Source of the DNA: Carcharhinus longimanus | Taxonomy: Eukaryota | DNA: 64,000 nt | Assembly (NCBI GenBank): GCA_030264375.1 | Contig: JASCQW010000099.1 | Coordinates: 49,225,740-49,289,739 of the forward strand | Reading direction: 5' to 3' | In this document: in pieces, positions 9,920 through 62,144 of the stretch | Layout of the letters: every line of letters starts with the position of its first letter | How positions within the stretch are numbered: position 1 is the stretch's first letter | Made by a program: the position numbers and the translations under genes | Notes under the pieces: generated by a model | Database searches by the model: none | Told to the model about the DNA's origin: nothing | The model's input: the letters and a program-made list of their open reading frames with translations, nothing else

Positions 9920-10515
9920 ATAAGTCGTGTGATGAAAAGAAATTGGAATCTATATCATTACCATCCATAGCTTCAAACTACAACATGCATGTGCAGATGC
10001 ACGTTCCCACAGCAAGCCAAACTTCTTTCGGTAGGGGTGATGGGACTTTGTAAATGTATTCTCTAAAGTCATCCCATACTCATTCATCTTTAGCCACTAA
10101 ATTATCAGTGAATTACACAAATGACATGCCGGTTTCTGCCAGTGAAATTAGTGAAGAAACTCACCAGGATGTGGTGTTCAGTAACATCAATTACATCCTG
10201 AATAGTTGGCCTAAAGAGTGTGAAGATGAGAAATTGTAGGAATATTTCACATGTGGAAATGAACTAAATGTTGATTAAGGCTGTCTCCTATGGAGTTTAG
10301 GAGTCATTGCTATATCATGATTTAGAGAGAAATTGTTCGAGAAATTTTAGAAGATTTCATGGGGCTGGTCTGCATGGAAGCAGAAGTAAGAAGCAATTTT
10401 TGGCATCTAAATGTATATAATAACACTGAAGAGTTGGTGAAGAAATATCAAGTATGTCACGAATGTCAAAGGATCTAACCAAGGTTGCTTTCATTCCATG
10501 GTCAATTACAAGAAA

Positions 10516-10770
10516 GTACAGGAAGAAGTCTCACAACACCAGGTTAAAGTCAAACAGGTTTATTTGGTAACAAGCTTTCAGAGCGCTGCTTCTTTGTCAG
10601 GGAGTTCTAATCACAAACAGAGCATATAAAGGCACACACTCTGATGAAGGAGCAGTGCTCTGAAAGCTAGTGGCATTTGTTACCAAATAAACCTGTTGGA
10701 CTTTAACCTGGTGTTGTGAGACTTCTTAATGTGTTTACCGTAGTCCAACACCGACATCTCCACATCACAG
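10516..10770. mobile_element. Palindromic Penelope-end mini-element (family 1) inserted in the Gypsy integrase
   Basis: Left arm aagaagtctcacaacaccaggttaaagtcaaacaggtttatttggtaaca is the inverse of right arm tgttaccaaataaacctgttggactttaacctggtgttgtgagacttctt; ends atctccacatca; flanking direct repeat ACAAGAAA at 10508-10515 and 10773-10780. Confidence 0.8.
10641..10672 (+). ncRNA. Minimal hammerhead ribozyme-like core (stem I imperfect)
   Basis: CTGATGA-A-GGAGC-AGT-GCTCT-GAA-AGCT-A-GTG: conserved boxes, 5 bp stem II, palindromic AGCT stem III. Confidence 0.55.
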
Positions 10771-11859
10771 TCACAAGAAAACCATGGGAGCAAGCATATG
10801 TTGATTTCTTTGAAGTGGAAAGGAAATAATATTTTGTTTTGGTTGATAGCTATAGTCTATGCCAATACCACAAGTGCCAAAACTATTGAGGTATTGAAAA
10901 GTTGGTTTGCAATTTGAGTCGGCAGAAGTGTTGATGTCAGCTACTGGTTCATAGCTTACATCTGAAGAGTTTGAAATATGTCTGTGTAAGGATGGAGTCA
11001 AATACATTCTAAGACCACCATATCAGGAGCAATGAATGGTGCTGCAGAAAGAACTATACATATTGTGATATCTTCTGCAGACATATGTGCTCAGAGACAA
11101 GCTGGACAGTAACTTCCATGTTTCTCTTTTACACAGGCTGGACAATTGTCTAGTTCTCTTGCAGAAACAGTCCTACAACAGGTTGCTCACCTTATGAGTT
11201 TGGGTTTAAAGGTCCTCCTAGGGCAAGAATTAGTTTGCCAGAGTCTGACATCAATAGTGAAGTAAAAGAAAAGCAAGACAAAGTAAAGACGAGTCATGAT
11301 AAATTAGACTTGAATCTTAGAGTACTGGTCAGAAGATCATAGTTAAAAGCCGCTGAGATCATAAAAAGAAGTATGTGATTGGGTTTGTCGTAAAGAGCCA
11401 CAATGCGTTCACGTATCTAGTGAGAGAGAGAGTGCCACGTTAGTCATTTGCTTGAAAGGGAATGCATGATAAACCTCTGATCCAAATTCCTTCCACAGTC
11501 CCCATTTCCCATATCACACAATTTACTCTATCAATGGATTCTACTAAGACAAATAAATCAAAGTTACAGAACCATTAAGTAGAGTTGGTAGTCAGGATCA
11601 AAGTTTGAGTTTGACACAGGCAGAAGTGTTAACAAAGCAGAGTCAAGCTAATGGATATGGAAGGAGATACCCAGAGGGGAAAAAGCCAGATTGTTTAACT
11701 GTAAGTATGAAGCAGAAAGAAATCACTCTCTTCATTATCTGCTGTCAAATTATGATATTTTTGACTAGCTCATGCCGGGTGAAATTTTTTTACATGTAAA
11801 TTATCCTGGAAAGAATGATCTTACATGTTTTCATTCTGATTATAATGCCTGTTTCTGCT

Positions 11860-21263: not shown

Positions 21264-21780
21264 CATATCAATATCCATGGCTGACGCTGTGGGCAAAATC
21301 TTCCCTGCTGATTTCCAAACCCTTCTGTAAGGCTTAAACATTGGCAGGTAAATGATGGAGAAGGTAGTTCAATCTGGAGGCAACCTCCAACTTTTTCAAA
21401 ATTTAAATAAAAAAAAAAGGCTTCTGCTGCCAGAGCAACAGGTGTAGGGTTAAGGTTGGCTGGAAGGGCAGGGGTGGAACCCCTGTACAAAGGTGGTCTG
21501 CGGCTGCTGAACCCAAGCAAACAGGAAAAGTCTCTTGGCTTGCCTGGAACACCTTTTTCCTCCTTGATGTCAGCAGGCCATCTCTGGGTTCCAACCATAT
21601 CCAGGAACCTGGAGGCTAAGTAGAAAATCCTAGTTGTCTTCTGTTAACAGGCCTTCATGGGTGCCTAATAATAGGTTTGATTGGCTCCCTGCGCATGAAG
21701 GGGGCTTTCTATTACCACCCCCCTACCACAAACCTTCGCAAAATAGCCCAAGGCAGGATGGAGCTGGAGGAACAAGGGGA

Positions 21781-22352
21781 GCCATGATGTGGAGATGCTG
21801 GCTTGGACTGGGGTAAGCACAGTAAGAAATCTCTAAACACAAGGTTAAAATTCAACAGGTTTATTTGGCAGCACAAACTTTCGGAGTCTCGTTCCTTCAT
21901 CAGGTGAATGAGGAGTTGTGCTCACAGGGCGTATACAGACACAAACTCAAATTACAAGATAATGGTTGGAATGTGAGCCTTTACAGGTAATCGAGTCTTA
22001 AAGGTAAATGAATGGTGAGAGGGCCAAGCACAAGTTAAAGAGGTGTGCATTGCTCCAGCCAGGACTATCTGTAACTCCCATAACTTAGTGCAAAATCTCA
22101 CTAACTGTCCTGGTTGGAGACAATACATACCTCTTTAACCTGTGCTTGCTCACGTTGCCTTGATTACCTCTAAGACTTGATTACCTGTAAAGACTTGCAT
22201 TCCAACCATTATCTTATAAATTGAGTTTGTGTCTGTATATGCCCTGTTTGTGAACACAACTCCTCACTCTTTTGATAAAGGAGCAAACTCTGAAAGCTTG
22301 TGCTGCCAAATAAGCCTGTCGGACTTTAACCTGGTGTCGTGAGACTTCTTAC
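21781..22352. mobile_element. Long palindromic Penelope-end element (family 1) with 12 bp target-site duplication
   Basis: Imperfect inverted arms ~21818-22065 and ~22108-22352; GGAACAAGGGGA at 21769-21780 and 22353-22364; hammerhead-like core on - strand at ~21872-21906. Confidence 0.85.
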
Positions 22353-22949
22353 GGAACAAGGGGATACAGGCTAGATGTGCTAATTTAGTGCCCATCCATC
22401 TTCCTCCATTACCAGCTTACACAGGGCCTAAAATTCAAGCCCTGCATGTTAGTAATGTAAATTCCATTCAGAAATATGAAATAATTGTGCGTCATGCAGA
22501 ATGGAAAAGTAAATTAGCAAAGTATTTTAATAACATGGTAGCCCTTCAATTGTGGTTGTGTATTTCCTCACTTGTTGAAGAAAAATAGACCATTAATACT
22601 TGAATGACCACTTGTCTGGACTATGAACAGTCAGAATGGAGAAGCTGCAGTGTCGTAGTTACAGTATTGCAGAATAATTGCATCACATTACAGGAAGTTA
22701 TAAACTAGGAATTAACTTGTGCTGGTTATAGGGGAATTTGGTAAAGTAAACTTCAAGGAAATCAAGAGCCTTATATAATTGTACATAATTCCAGAGAGAT
22801 TCAAAGCTTTTCTAGATTATCAGTTAGAGGTTACAACTTTAAAATATGATACTCCGAGTTAAATACAGAGATTCTCTGGCCTCCTGCTTGTGGGAGGTGG
22901 TGTGTTGTTCGCATTTCAAAAAGTTATGATCAACTCAAAATTAGCTATG

Positions 22950-24104: not shown

Positions 24105-25340
24105 AACATAGAAAATAGGAGCAGAAGGAGGCCATTTGGCCCTTCAAGCCTGCTTCACCATTTATTATGATCATGGCTTATCATCCAATTCAATAGCCTG
24201 ATTGCCCTCACCCTTGCCCTCTATCTGTGGTAGCAAATTCCACAGGCTGACCACCCTGNNNNNNNNNNNNNNNNNNNNNNNNNNNNNNNNNNNNNNNNNN
24301 NNNNNNNNNNNNNNNNNNNNNNNNNNNNNNNNNNNNNNNNNNNNNNNNNNNNNNNNNNTTATGATCATGGCTTATCATCCAACTCAATAGCCTGATTGCC
24401 CTCACCCTTGCCCTCTATCTGTGGTAGCAAATTCCGCAGGCTGACCACCCTGGGTGAAGAAATTTCTCCTCATCATGTCCCAAACCTCTATCCTGAATCT
24501 TCAGACTGTGACCTCTGGTTCTGGACACCCCCACCATCGAGAACATCCTTCTTGCACCTGCCCTGCTAGACCTATTAGTATTTTTTTAGGTTTCTGAGAT
24601 TCCTCTCCCCACATCACCCCCCCCCCACCCACTTTCATTCTTCTGAACTCCAGCAAATATAACCTTAACTGACTCAATCTCTCCTCATATCTGCCATCCC
24701 AGGAATCAGTCTGATAAATCTCTGCATTCCCTCTATAGCAAGAACATCCTTTCTCAGACAAGGAGTCCAAAACTGCACACAATTTTCCAGGTGTGGCTTT
24801 ACCAAGGCCTTGTAATTGCAGCAAGACATCCCTGCTCCTGCATTCTAATCCTCTCGCTATGAAGGCCAACATTTGGCTTTTTTACTGCCTACTGCACCTA
24901 CATGCTTATCTTCAGTATCTGGTGTATGAGGATACCCAGGTCTTGTTGCACGTTCCCTCTTTTGTAGCAAAAATAGGGCAGAAATTCAAAGTGGATAAGC
25001 TCACATTTATCCACATTATACTGCATCTGCCATTCATTTACCCACTTGCTCAACTTGTCCAAATTACACTGAAGCATCTCTGGATCCTCCTCACAGCTCA
25101 CCCTCTCACCCAGGTTTTGTGGCTTCTGCAAACTTGGAGATATTACATTCAGTTTCCTCACCTAAATCATTAATATGTAGTGAATAGCTGGGATCCCAGC
25201 CATACCCCATTAGTCACTGCAGGCATTTGGAAAAAGACCCCTTTGTTTCCTATCTGCCAACCAGTTTTCTGTCCATCTCAATACACTACCCCCAATCCTT
25301 TAATTTTAGATGCTTATCTCTTATGTGAGATTTTGTTGAA
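24105..25340 (-). mobile_element. CR1 (HER1-like) LINE 3' region spanning a gap
   Basis: ORFs give LQCNLDKLSKWVNEWQMQYNVDKC, MLAFIARGLECRSRDVLLQL, YEERLSQLRLYLLEFRRM, RVVSLWNLLPQ; tail gaagggccaaatggcctccttctgctcctattttctatg on the - strand. Confidence 0.9.
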
Positions 25341-25569: not shown

Positions 25570-25970
25570 CATAATTCTTAGGCCATTCAGCCCTTCAAGC
25601 ACCACCATCCAATAAGATTATGGAAGATCTGACAGTGGCTTAACATATGAATTAGGAATAGGCTACTCAGCCCCTCAAGCCTGCTCTACCATTCCGTAAG
25701 ATTATGGCTGGTCTGATTTCTTCACATTCCTGCCTATCCCCCTATAATCTTTCACCCCTACACCCTACTTAATCTATCTACCCTTGCCTTAAAAATATTC
25801 AAATACTCTGCTTTCGCTGCCTTTTGAGGAAGAGAATTCCAAAGGCCCTCTGAGGGGAAAAATTCTCCTCATCTCCATCTTAAACAGGTGACCGCTTATC
25901 ATTAGACAGTGACCCCCTGGTTCTAGGTTCTCCCACAAGATGAAACAGCCTCTCTGCATCCACCCTTTCA
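25570..25970 (-). mobile_element. CR1 3' end fragments
   Basis: Two CR1 tails (ggccattcagcccttcaagc; ggctactcagcccctcaagcctgct) plus terminal coding remnant (ORF 25789-25971). Confidence 0.75.
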
Positions 25971-28772
25971 ATCAAATTGGTCTCAATTCCAGTAATTTCA
26001 ATACATGGTAACATTACGTAACCCTGTTTAGTAATGCAATGTATTCTTACAAACAAGAAAATGAAAACACAGGAACTTTAAATCCTTGGCCACATAATTA
26101 ACTGACATAAATGCCCAGCAATATGTTGCAGTATTAAAGACCAAATTGAATTTCCTGCAGAGAAACAGGCCATTTGATCCAACCAGGTCTATGCTAACAT
26201 TTGTGCTCCCACTTTACTATTTCTAAACCTACTAATATATCTGTCTATTCTTTTTTTCTTCACAAACTTCCCTATTTGCCCCTTAAATACATCTATGCTA
26301 ATTGCTGAACTACCCTACGGGGTTTCAATCTCACCACTTCCTGTGTTAAGACGTTCCGAATCCTTTCATAATTTTAGAAATCTATCAGGTCACCCTTCAG
26401 TGAGGAGACAAGGGGTTGGTCTGTTTGGTCTTTTCTAATCATTGTGGCCCCTCAGTCCTGGTATCTTCATTGTAAATCTTTTTTTTGCACTTTCTCCATT
26501 GTTTCTATATCCATTGTGTCAGAAGGAGAACAGAAAAGTACAAAACCTTAATGTCCACAGCTGAAGTCAACGTGGCTACTCTCTCAGATGCCAAATCATG
26601 ATAGCAAAAAAATTAACAAACTTCAAAGAATGAGCAGTTAGACTCATAGTCTAGTTAAATACAATGCTAATGTCTGCAGTAGGAAAAGGAATGAATCATG
26701 CCAATTGTCTGTTAAAACTGCTTTTAAGATGTACTTTTCTGTGACCTGGTGAATGTGAATCTAGCAATTTTACAAGCAGAATGGTAACTGCAAACAGACA
26801 CAAATTTGGTGAAAGGGGAGGGAAATTCTTTTTTTAATACTTAATGGATTACATCCTGAGTTTCAGAAAAATATGCTTTATGGCCACAGCTGCCAGGCCA
26901 TCATTTTGGAAAGGGAGCCCCTCCACAGAATGGCCAGAGGCTGCAGCCATGTGATAAAAGGGGAGGGGGAGTATGTATTGGGGGCCACTCAGTCAGCCAC
27001 CTCCAGGCTCCTACTCTGATTTGTCCTCATTCGGAGATCTGTCCAGCGATGGCCCCAATCTGCCCATTGACTTATGCATATGTGCTCTCCCACTGCTGGG
27101 AAGGTAAATCTAACCACATCTCCAATGAGACTAGCCAGACGCAAGACCTTGTCAGCCGGCAGATCTAACTGCTTGCTGNNNNNNNNNNNNNNNNNNNNNN
27201 NNNNNNNNNNNNNNNNNNNNNNNNNNNNNNNNNNNNNNNNNNNNNNNNNNNNNNNNNNNNNNNNNNNNNNNNNNNNNNGAAAAATATCAGCCATGATTGA
27301 ATGGCAGAGCAGACTCGATGGGCCGAGTGGCCTAATTCTGCTCCTATGTCTTATGATCCTGTGGTCTAAGTGAATAGAATCCAGAGTTTTATAAATAGAG
27401 TCTTAGAGTGTCAGAGCAAAGTGATTATTGTAAAATTTCAAATCACCAGTTAGTCCCAAGCTGATCTATTGTGTAGCTCATTGTTAAAAGGAGAGAGGTT
27501 ACAAAGATCGAATAAAACCGTAAGATATAGGAGTAGAATTAGGCCATTTGGCCCATCAAGTCTGAGGGACTTTGTTTCAATGAAAAGAATCTGGGTTTGT
27601 TCTCCTTACAGTAGCGAGAGTTAAGGAAAGCTGGAATACAGATGTTCACTATCCAGATAAGTTTGGATAGGAAAGGAAGTATTTCCAGTAATGGGAGGGT
27701 CAGTAACCAGGGGAAATATCAGAACCATTTCTCTGCAGTTGTTGTGATCTAGAATGTTCTGTCTAAAAGGGTGGAGAATAATCATTTTGAGAAGGGAGTT
27801 GGATAAATACCAGTGAGTTTCCCGATCCACCATGGCAGGAACCAAAGGAAGATCCCGTGGGAAATTCACACAAACACGAAAACAGTTTTTGAACTCCTGC
27901 TGAATTCACCCTGGGATCTTGCTGTGCAAGAACTGGTACCAACGAACCAACAATCACTGTATTTAAGGGTAATTTGTTACCATTAGAGAATTGGGTAAAA
28001 ACGGTTTTAAAGGAGGAAATCTTTCTTTAGTAATGTTTAGAACTGATGCGTTGACTATATTTTAGATAGTTTCATATTTTCCTATAATAGATACCAATCA
28101 GGTCAAGGATCAATTTGCCAGAAAACACTGAGAGTGAAGGTGGCATGTCTGAGGGTAGGTTGCCAGTGTATTCAGTAACCAGAGCACAGTGACCGCTCCA
28201 CACACCTATCTCTCTCTTGCTTATTTCGTTCTGTCCTCGAACCTTCATTAAAAGTGCTGGTCTTGCTCTCCCTGCTGACTTCCTCCTGTTATTTATTTTG
28301 TGCCTGTCAGAAAAAATGTGAAGAAGAGCAAAATTGTACTGTGTTGTTTATTTTACAGACCAGCTCAGACGCCTGCGCTGTTAAACAGCACAATTCACCT
28401 TCAGCTCAACCCTGGCGACTTCCGATTTTTAAACTTAAAATATTCAGTGCATACCACCACAATATTTGCTCCAAGTGAAATATCAGCTTGTGCCATTATT
28501 TATTCCATGCCTAATAATGACCAGTCCTCCTCCCCACCTGTATTTACACTGTCCTTTCTTCTGTTCCATTTTGGTAGTGTCCTACCTAGCCAGTATGAAC
28601 CCATGACCAGAATACCATGCTCTAAAGTTACGCATCCCATTGTACCATTTGACCCCACATGGATCTTGCTCAGAAGTACCCCCTTTTAATACCCAATCTA
28701 CTCTGCTACCTAGGCCAGTTATCTGAGCTCCAGGGAAGAATTACACTGTAGCATGTAAGTCTCCCTGCAAAG

Positions 28773-34310: not shown

Positions 34311-34531
34311 TATTTTGGGGGTGGAAAATGATGAGCACTAGTCCACAGGGAGGGGGAGAAAGTAAGTCAATTTATGCTACATTTGGATATTTCCCAGCGG
34401 CACATTCTGGATTGTCATTTTGTATGCCAGGGGTATAACTTAAGAAAAATGAGAAACCATTATCTGAAACCTTAATTTTACTACCATTGCCTGAAATTTC
34501 ATGCTCATTGTTCTTCTTAACAGCCAATACC

Positions 34532-34762
34532 ATGATGCTCCAGCACATAGGACAAGTATCTGCGTCAGATGTCAGTACAGCAGCAGTCGTTCCATGTATT
34601 TCACCCTCAATGTCTTTGGTATTTGATGAATTTACAAACATTACCCCTCTGGTCAAAGAAGAGCTGCGATTTGCCATTCAAAGCAAACGGATATCAAATG
34701 GTGCCTCGACCATGGACTATTTCATAGGAACTGAGAGCTCAAACGAAGCAGCAGAAAAAAAG
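34532..34762 (+). CDS. ATF3: Activating transcription factor 3, coding exon 1 (exon 2; exon starts 34524)
   Basis: MMLQHIGQVSASDVSTAAVVPCISPSMSLVFDEFTNITPLVKEELRFAIQSKR... matches human MMLQHPGQVSASEVSASAIVPCLSPPGSLVFEDFANLTPFVKEELRFAIQNK; acceptor ttcttcttaacag, Kozak accATG, donor AAG|GTGCGT; 77 codons. Confidence 0.97.
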
Positions 34763-36257: not shown

Positions 36258-36555
36258 GAAAGAGACAAGGTTCACTCTTGGAATAGACTGCCCCAGTGGA
36301 CAATAAGGCAAGGGATATTGCGGATCTCCCCTGTTTCAGTCTGAAAGGACTCAGTCATGTAGCATTTAAGGGCCAAAGCTACCTTCTTTGCCACAGAGTG
36401 CTGCCTATGCCCTGCTTTGAGGTTTCAAATGGGGCTGCAGCAAGTGATTAAACTTGGTCACAGCCTCATAGGCAGCTCACCCACATCAGGTTGAAATAAG
36501 AAAACTGTTGTCTAACAAAATGCACATCTCCTTCCTCCTCCCCCCTCTCTAAGCT
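36258..36555 (+). repeat. Left arm of ~300 bp inverted repeat (partner 41529-41831)
   Basis: By-eye alignment to the reverse complement of 41529-41831: about 12 substitutions and 3 small indels. Confidence 0.95.
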
Positions 36556-39015: not shown

Positions 39016-39213
39016 GAGTCAGAAAAACTGGAATCCCTGAACGCGGAGCTGAAAGCACAAATAGAAGAATTGAAAAATGAGAAACAGCAGCTGATTTACA
39101 TGCTGAACTTGCACAGGCCCACATGTATAGTCCGGGCTCAGAATGGAACGACTCCAGAGGAGGAGAAAAACCTTTTCATCCAACAGATCAAGGAAGGAAC
39201 ACTGCAGAACTAA
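39016..39213 (+). CDS. ATF3: ATF3 coding exon 3 (leucine zipper and C-terminus)
   Basis: ESEKLESLNAELKAQIEELKNEKQQLIYMLNLHRPTCIVRAQNGTTPEEEKNLFIQQIKEGTLQN*; acceptor tcttacccctag; TAA 39211-39213; full protein 77+36+65 = 178 aa. Confidence 0.97.
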   Translation, partial: ESEKLESLNAELKAQIEELKNEKQQLIYMLNLHRPTCIVRAQNGTTPEEEKNLFIQQIKEGTLQN

Positions 39214-41528: not shown

Positions 41529-41831
41529 AGCATAGAGAAGGGGGAGGAGGAAGGAGATGTGCATTTTGTTAGACACCAGTTTTCTTATTTCAACCTGATG
41601 GGGGTGAGCTGCCTATGAGGCTGTGACCGAGTTTAATCACTTGCTGCAGCCCCATTTGAAACCTCAAAGCAGGGCATAGGCAGCACTCTTTGTGGCTGAG
41701 AAGGTAGCTTTGGCCCTTTAAATGCTACATGACGGAGTCCTTTCAGACTGAAACAGGGGAGATCTGCAATATCCCTTGCTTTGTTGTCCACTGGGACAGT
41801 CTATTCCAAGACAGTGAACCTTGTCTCTTTC
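41529..41831 (-). repeat. Right arm of ~300 bp inverted repeat (partner 36258-36555)
   Basis: See left arm. Confidence 0.95.
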
Positions 41832-47850: not shown

Positions 47851-47996
47851 GCACAGACAGAGAGAAGAGAGAAAAAAGTGATTAAAGAGATAGATAGAGA
47901 GAACCGATCGATCGGGTTTGTGAGAGAAAGAGAGCGAAAGAAAAAGAGAGAGACTCCACAGAAAGAGAGCACAGCCTCCCTCGGGGACCCTCCATC

Positions 47997-48112
47997 ATGT
48001 CCACCTCCGTGGTGCAGGTCACTAACATCTCCCCGGTGGCCAGTAGTGAGCAGCTGACCACCCTCTTCAGCTTCCTGGGAGAGATCGACGAATTCCGCGT
48101 CTTCCCTTCCGA
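47997..48112 (+). CDS. First coding exon of an SRSF11/SREK1-family SR splicing factor (start of RRM)
   Basis: MSTSVVQVTNISPVASSEQLTTLFSFLGEIDEFRVFPS(D/E) compares with SRSF11 VIQVTNVSPSASSEQMRTLFGFLGKIDELRLFPPD and SREK1 TSVIQVTNLSSAVTSEQMRTLFSFLGEIEELRLYPPD; ends at phase-2 donor GA|GTAAGT; GC-rich third positions. No exon 2 recognised before 64000. Orthology unresolved, so no symbol. Confidence 0.9.
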
Positions 48113-48624: not shown

Positions 48625-48763
48625 ATTTATTTGATAGTATCAAATATTTATTTGATAGTATCATTTATTTGATACTATCAAATAAATCGGTTGGACTAAA
48701 ACCTGGTGTTGTCAGACTTTTTACTGTGTTTACCCCAGTCCAATGCCGGCACTTCCACATCAT
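48625..48763 (+). mobile_element. Truncated Penelope-end (family 1) with fold-back junction repeats
   Basis: caaataaatcggttggactaaaacctggtgttgtcagact...ccccagtccaatgccggcacttccacatca, preceded by inverted 18-mer copies. Confidence 0.8.
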
Positions 48764-48780
48764 CACCTTTCCTCTGATCA

Positions 48781-60615: not shown

Positions 60616-61485
60616 TGTCTTTGTGTTCAATTTCCTTTTGAAAGTTATTACTGAATCTGCTTCTACCATCCTTTCAGACAGCGCATTCCAAGTCACAAGC
60701 ACAAGGTTTTACACAGCATAAAAGTCTCCCCTTCAATTGTCTCTTGTCCTTTTGACAATTAATGTGATACTAAGCACTCTCACAAAGCCAGATGGTTCCA
60801 GCTTCAATCCTGAGTCTGTACTGAACCATCTGAGCTAAACTAAGGCAGGACTGGAACATAATCGTTGACCACAACACTACTAGCCTTGGAGGAAAGAAAA
60901 CCTGGCCATCCTGCCTGCTCCTGATCGTGGTCCAATGATTCCTACTTGGATGTGCACAAGCGTGGGAATGATGGGATCAAACTTCATGTGTTGCTCCTAT
61001 CCTATGGACAAAAATCCGATGAACAAACACTGTTAAGCGGGACAAACTGCTGTTAAGCTGAAGTGCTGGTGCTACTTATCATTTACGAAAACTTGTCACA
61101 GCAAGAGTGAACACATTCACAGTGGGTAATGGGAGGAAGTGGTACACATGTTGAAAGACTAGGAAACTCTGTGACATCGAGACAATTTCAATCTCAGTTT
61201 TACTGAGTATTTGCATGCAGAGAGCAGAGCAAGGTTACTATCAAGTGAACACAGAGAGACTCATGGAGTAGAGAAGCAGGATATTGTCAGGAAGAGTTAT
61301 CTACAGAGGCCTAGAGGTGCCCCAGGAGAAAGGGTACCAAGGAGTCTCTTCTCTGGACTGTGTTTCTTTGCCTCCCAGTGACGAATTTGCAGCATGCCGG
61401 CAACATAGGACTAGCCTGCTAACACACACTGTGATTGACCAAAGGTTAGGATCGGCATGAGAAGATTGCAGGGAACATGGAAACA

Positions 61486-61817
61486 ATCTCACAACACCAG
61501 GTTAAAGTCCCACAGGTTTATTTGGTAGCACGAGCTTTCGGAGTGTTGCCCCTTCATCAGGTGACTCTCACGAGGAGAACAATCTTAAAGTTAAAGCTGT
61601 GCTATTTAGGAATGAAATCAGGAAAGAGTTATTTCAAATAATTGGTGGAAATCTATAATTTTTATCCCCACCCACCTCTTTGCGAAAATCCTGAACGTTG
61701 AAGAGGCAACACTCCAAAGGCTCGTGCTACTAAATAAACCTATGGGACTTTAACCTGGTGTTGAGAGACTATTTACTGTGCCTACCCCAGTCCAACGCTG
61801 GCAACTCCACATCATTA
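61486..61817. mobile_element. Palindromic Penelope-end element (family 1) with captured 130 bp insert
   Basis: Arms ~61486-61566 and ~61699-61769 plus end ...caactccacatca; flanking near-duplication GAACATGGAAACA (61473-61485) and GAACATTGAAACA (61818-61830). Confidence 0.85.
61529..61563 (-). ncRNA. Minimal type I hammerhead ribozyme motif
   Basis: Minus strand CAC-CTGATGA-A-GGGG-CAACA-CTCC-GAA-AGCT-C-GTG: stem I CAC/GTG, both conserved boxes, 4 bp stem II, palindromic AGCT stem III, CUC cleavage triplet. Confidence 0.7.
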
Positions 61818-62144
61818 GAACATTGAAACAGGAGGCCATTCAACCCTTTGAGTCTGTCTGCCCTTCAGTAAGATCATTGTTGAATTGTACCTCAAACTCC
61901 ACTTTTCCAACTTTGCCCTTTCATTGATACCTTCACCTAGTTGAAGTATATAAATCTCAGCCTTAAACTTTCAATCAACGTTCAGGCCTTTCGCGAAGAG
62001 GTGGGTGGGGATAAAAATTATAGATTTCCACCACTTGTTTGAAATAACTCTTTCCTGATTTCATTCCTAAATAGCCCAGCTTTAACTTTAAGATTGTTCT
62101 CCTCATTCTGGATTCCCTGACCAGAGGAAAAAATTTCTTTTAAC

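Follow-up and report, generated by a model that had tools for sequence, protein, structure and literature searches.

Layout of the Locus

The window, that is, the whole stretch of 64,000 nt of Carcharhinus longimanus DNA that was analysed, carries near its end a hairpin-like insertion, the features of which are collected in Table 1. It is bounded by a 13-nt target-site duplication, and inside this duplication follow a short inverted arm, 7 nt of filler, a 130-nt patch and a long arm. The arms measure 79 nt (left) and 117 nt (right), lie on opposite strands and are able to form a stem of 66 pairs. The left arm is alignable with five other arms in the window. Between the end of the long arm and the right copy of the duplication there are two unassigned nucleotides. 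An earlier note on this DNA described the structure under the positions 61473-62104; it is real, but the first 13 of these nucleotides are the left target-site duplication, and the left arm begins at 61486.

The score of the target-site duplication is reached by 2 of 3000 random zone pairs. LINE tails consist of short repeats, and a pre-existing second unit could imitate a target-site duplication here. Such mimicry by a LINE tail repeat is made less likely by the duplications of 12 to 13 nt at both sister hairpins in the window.

Table 1. Features of the hairpin locus and its right flank (positions in the window)
Feature	Positions	Strand	Remarks
Target-site duplication, left copy	61473..61485	+	12/13 identical to 61818-61830
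Short inverted arm, probable Penelope-like terminal repeat	61486..61564	-	without tail; 64/70 identical to right arm
Putative minimal hammerhead motif	61529..61563	-	descriptor scan; 3-bp stem I, complete core, 4-bp stem II
Junction filler, 7 nt	61565..61571	.	small palindrome with arm end
Templated patch, 130 nt	61572..61701	+	inverted copy of 61975-62104; 124/130 identical
Long arm, element sense	61699..61815	+	5'-truncated inside putative hammerhead core; G12 -> A
Tail, 46 nt, right arm only	61770..61815	+	no partner in short arm
Target-site duplication, right copy	61818..61830	+	
Putative decayed LINE 3' fragment adjoining the insertion site	61828..62134	-	nhmmer E 6e-7 to 25641-25989
Patch source	61975..62104	-	145-274 nt beyond right target-site duplication

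Local Origin of the Patch

The patch is the reverse complement of adjoining DNA over 130 nt without gaps (6 mismatches, E about 1e-56), just as had been counted by eye, and its source lies 158-287 bp past position 61817, where it was first placed. The last three nucleotides of the patch (TGA, 61699-61701) are common to the patch and the right arm, in agreement with the same reading. Elsewhere in the 64 kb the loop has no match except one chance word of 13 nt. Identity of the patch to its neighbour is 95.4%, as against 56%, 54% and 43% to three other LINE copies. Furthermore, patch and neighbour have in common a private 13-nt insertion that is missing in four other aligned LINE pieces. Because this insertion is shared and the other LINE copies are at most 56% identical, the source is local, and the adjoining flank can be accepted, as proposed, as the template of the loop. 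The contrary case, in which many CR1 copies would match equally well after an independent insertion, is excluded within the window. The patch is therefore a local copy, inverted with respect to its source, and a single duplication encloses both arms and the patch. The 7-nt filler that precedes it does not match the patch source; its match to family sequence is ambiguous, and there are several possible local sources of 6-7 nt.

Patch and source form a second inverted repeat (61572-62104), for which a single-strand DNA stem of 126 pairs is predicted that outcompetes the 66-pair stem between the arms.

A decayed LINE 3' end is the probable identity of the source, indirectly, through a chain of matches. 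The source matches 25641-25989 (E 6e-7), and 25641-25989 in turn matches 24418-24579 (E 1.7e-6), which is part of a continuous RT-bearing fragment at 24360-25200. Relatives of that fragment carry RT domains, and one of the five relatives scanned also carries an APE endonuclease. Direct protein searches with the source gave no homologue and no Pfam family. Of the proteins related to the RT piece at 24.9 kb, the 47 out of 150 that have 150 aa or more were compared with the source by tblastn, and 0/47 matched at E<1. A search with the frame 24504-24881 returned nothing. We assume the CR1 clade name for the source LINE as a label.

An independent LINE fragment in the loop, or a mobile cargo unit arriving from or spreading to other loci, is extremely unlikely. 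The patch does appear to be LINE-derived, and for a rotifer it is known that host genes were mobilised in trans by PLE repeats (PMC3846280). However, the other LINE copies are too divergent and lack the private insertion, while the window contains neither a second copy of the patch nor a direct pLTR pair, there is no ORF, and one hammerhead core is broken. The features of pLTR-mediated transduction are absent as well: the source is adjacent rather than unlinked, and the arms are inverted rather than direct. What had been called host cargo is probably a decayed LINE fragment. That it could be remobilised as a unit, as had also been proposed, finds no support, because there is only one intact hammerhead core, the LINE cargo is dead, and the window holds no second copy. 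The locus is inert and fixed, a defunct terminal repeat with a defunct, probably LINE-derived piece inside it, and no function is evident.

It is also highly unlikely that a short-read misjoin placed a duplicate of the flank into the hairpin. Inverted structures of PLEs trouble short-read assemblies (PMC8557442), and the window has 9 N gaps, one of them 0.9 kb upstream of the locus. A 97.9% identical duplicate that flanks an N gap (24165-24258 and 24359-24452) is itself likely to be an assembly artefact. A misjoined piece should, however, nearly equal its source, whereas six substitutions, including CpG decay, are found here; moreover, the bounding duplication is present and no gap lies inside the locus.

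A Probable Penelope-Type Repeat Family

The family to which the arms belong occurs at four loci in the window, always as short terminal pieces, and at three of the four these are hairpins with an inverted, 5'-truncated repeat beside a direct copy. The two sister hairpins (10503-10780 and 21769-22364) have target-site duplications of 13 nt with 2 mismatches (10503/10768) and of 12 exact nt (21769/22353), respectively. All three hairpins have a one-sided tail, of 33 and 41 nt in the sisters and 46 nt at the locus studied here. Penelope-like insertions are described (PMC3846280, PMC4209133, PMC8557442) as marked by a minimal hammerhead, a truncated copy in inverted orientation, a short duplication of the target site and a tail at one end only, and the hairpin is likely to be such an insertion. 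This assignment is structural, since no RT or GIY-YIG ORF of the family was identified at the four terminal pieces in the window.

Each sister hairpin has an unpaired centre of about 40 nt. That of the 10-kb hairpin is family sequence (83% identity over 41 nt), while about 40 nt of the 22-kb centre have no match elsewhere in the window; compared with their own flanks, neither of the two centres gave a match. When hairpin centres are checked against flanks, as the earlier note had suggested, one of three is thus flank-derived: local capture occurs, but infrequently among these few hairpins. The fourth member, a single-arm copy at 48670-48764, is preceded by two exact 18-nt inverted copies (48625 and 48646) of its own truncated 5' end (48670-48687). 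As judged from this arrangement, it is an iterated fold-back junction, independent of that in the hairpin and in the same family. A target-site duplication was not found at 48625-48764.

Hammerhead Motifs

A descriptor scan of both strands of the window yields two minimal-hammerhead matches, the one in the left arm and another at 21872-21906(-), whereas 50 shuffles gave 0.02 on average. The left arm was said to hold the best-preserved motif of the window; its coordinates are exact, and with 4 bp, against 3 bp at 21872-21906(-), it has the longer stem II of the two. The motif has an extra base before stem II, and a palindromic stub replaces helix III. It fits the minimal hammerhead of PLEs in its complete core, the extra base between 9 and 10.1, the G10.1-C11.1 pair, the palindromic 15.2-16.2 and the short stem I, so that the features of this putative ribozyme are those described in PMC4209133. 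The right arm starts inside the hammerhead core, without the first half of the core, and has G12 changed to A. The notion of ribozyme-containing ends consequently applies to the left arm alone.

At the gathering threshold, Rfam gave 0 matches in the whole window. Four sub-threshold Rfam matches at the locus, none of them a hammerhead, were taken as chance. Single-strand MFE folding of six arm segments gave a hammerhead fold in none (z 0.02 for the monomer). Such an outcome is expected for a motif without helix III, and the absent monomer fold is uninformative. Minimal hammerheads are reported to need a dimer (PMC4209133), and hammerhead cleavage was dispensable for insertion in vitro (PMC11167929).

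A Proposed Fold-Back Model of Integration

The patch is probably a one-off snap-back join of two new DNA ends during a Penelope-type insertion; we give this reading a probability of roughly 0.6. Staggered nicks 13 nt apart would each prime a cDNA, that of the right arm beginning at the end of the tail and that of the left arm about 45 nt further in. The right-arm cDNA would stop inside the hammerhead core. Its 3' end would then anneal over 3 nt to a site some 275 nt back on its own flank strand, provided that resection or displacement had exposed this strand. After the copying of about 130 nt of flank, the extended end would be joined to the left-arm cDNA. The polymerase that made the patch could be a host repair polymerase or the element's RT. 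We infer the two-strand priming, the resection, the fold-back and the timing; the local origin, the orientation and the bounding duplication are observed.

Read along the bottom strand, the right arm (cDNA of the sense RNA) is followed by the top-strand sequence of the source and then by element-sense sequence. For the middle part the template must have been the right flank's bottom strand, which had also served as primer for the cDNA, and the fold-back would therefore be in cis. By strand logic, a cis fold-back of the right-arm cDNA is expected to give an inverted patch from the right flank, and this is what is found. The left arm has 8 nt (61557-61564) that are missing from the right arm, and thus it is not a copy of the latter. 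As it is element-sense, and hence uncopyable from the same sense RNA, and has these 8 extra nt, a second cDNA that was primed from the opposite target strand is its best interpretation. Both arms come from one template lineage, because two variants are common to them and absent from every other family copy. The earlier note envisaged a polymerase that moved during integration from element RNA to flanking DNA and back. The passage from element sequence to flanking DNA survives, most likely at integration, but the return to element RNA does not, given the element-sense left arm with its 8 extra nt.

A PLE protein in purified form is able to cut both strands of the target and to extend them, starting at two sites the spacing of which defines the tail (PMC11167929). 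At the cDNA ends of R2, snap-back synthesis starts on cDNA or, in fewer cases, on target DNA in the vicinity (PMC11371274, PMC11331408). Among the routes of end joining, one has been described in which snap-back synthesis precedes annealing at microhomologies (PMC5728401).

Several observations weigh against a snap-back join. A 3-nt microhomology such as that at the right junction is expected by chance in about 6% of joins. The left junction, where a 6-nt family match at the patch start is interrupted by 7 unassigned nucleotides, is suggestive at best. Only one of three hairpins has a flank patch, and both the fold-back distance and the patch length exceed the end-joining examples in the available part of PMC5728401, where primer repeats lie about 10-30 nt from the break.

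The main rival, possible though clearly less probable, is a later repair: the hairpin would have inserted with a plain centre, and a break at the palindrome centre would have been repaired afterwards by a deletion and a flank-templated patch. Palindrome centres are known to break and to rearrange, and the 66-pair stem would provide such a palindrome. The divergence between patch and source, 4.7% (6/127 differences), is nominally below that between the arms, 8.6% (6/70), so that the point estimate leans slightly to a later patch; the difference is not significant (Fisher p 0.35). Arms of 79 and 117 nt are similar to those of the patch-free hairpin 10516-10767, so an extra central loss is unneeded. 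A fold-back junction is, furthermore, also present at the single-arm copy.

A very unlikely alternative is that the element's RT jumped to a minus-strand RNA of the locus and used 130 nt of this RNA as template. Jumps of this kind, to other RNAs, have been described for R2 (PMC11371274, PMC11331408) and proposed for PLEs (PMC3846280), and the orientation of the patch is compatible with one. Such a jump requires a local minus-strand transcript at that very moment, whereas a DNA fold-back explains the proximity to the nick more simply.

Substitution Asymmetry

The substitutions at the locus are unevenly distributed. When polarised against other family arms, all six differences between the arms are derived in the right arm. 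Between patch and source, 5/6 differences appear to be derived in the patch; this polarity is weak, being based on inspection of distant LINE outgroups by eye and on one CpG decay, although at all six sites the patch has A/T where the source has G/C. Together, 11/11 polarisable substitutions lie in the patch and the right arm (61572-61774) and none in the left arm or the source (p 0.001-0.002 under equal rates, post hoc). A single nascent strand would have produced just this block, but the spectrum is mixed and a level of 5-9% is high for polymerase error.

It could be imagined, as a rather improbable extension of the snap-back join, that Penelope hairpins are joined by two-strand priming and fold-back synthesis and that the folded-back strand is hypermutated while single-stranded. 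If this were true and general, common insertions would record an unseen last step of PLE integration and would systematically create local inverted duplications of host DNA. Hypermutability of the spacer was considered as another cause of the asymmetry and discarded as too weak, the described effects being about 1.35-fold and concerning loops of 4-5 nt (PMC5737083).

Relation to Known Systems

The locus provides a genuine, clear-cut instance of a junction type already known, in a family for which such junctions seem little documented. Penelope-like elements with inverted pLTRs (PMC3846280, PMC8557442, PMC11167929) have the same inverted 5'-truncated copy, one-sided tail, short duplication and minimal hammerhead. 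Their tails measure 30-40 nt (PMC8557442, PMC11167929), as against 46 nt here, and the duplication is 13 nt here but 8-10 nt in the rotifer examples; no ORF was identified at the present locus. The steps of PLE integration that follow priming are described as not yet validated (PMC11167929).

Captured DNA is also on record. In a rotifer, a few unrelated non-coding sequences have been captured between solo pLTRs with target-site duplications (PMC3846280); here the captured DNA goes back to the flank next to it and is inverted, an origin not reported in the accessible text of that paper. In the NRPS case of Adineta vaga (PMC3846280), DNA foreign to the element likewise lies between pLTRs inside a target-site duplication. 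This case concerns, however, a gene from another locus between two direct pLTRs, while the shark locus has inverted arms, one of them broken, and DNA from 145 nt away.

Junctions made by fold-back are known from other contexts. The snap-back 5' junctions of R2 (PMC11371274, PMC11331408) belong to engineered insertions in human cells that are joined to upstream rDNA, whereas the patch described here lies between two element arms at a natural locus. In snap-back end joining (PMC5728401), too, a short inverted repeat primes by folding back, a limited stretch is synthesised and then annealed to the other end, and the product is a new inverted repeat that includes the insert. In the examples available from that source the primer repeats lie within about 30 nt of the break, while here the patch measures 130 nt and begins 145 nt past the duplication. 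A literature search, with most subscription papers and supplements outside its scope, returned no report of a flank-templated inverted patch at the centre of a PLE hairpin. A patch of traceable source reveals from which side and in which orientation it was copied, so that a survey of many hairpins could test two-strand priming with fold-back from sequence alone.

Other Features of the Window

The window also contains exon-like frames, of which those at 34520-34750 and 39016-39210 presumably resemble ATF3 and that at 47901-48080 presumably resembles an SR-type splicing factor; Pfam and PDB searches with the three frames did not confirm either likeness. An inverted pair of 300 nt, with no further copy in the window, is formed by 36258-36555 and 41529-41831, which lie 5 kb apart and are 94% identical.
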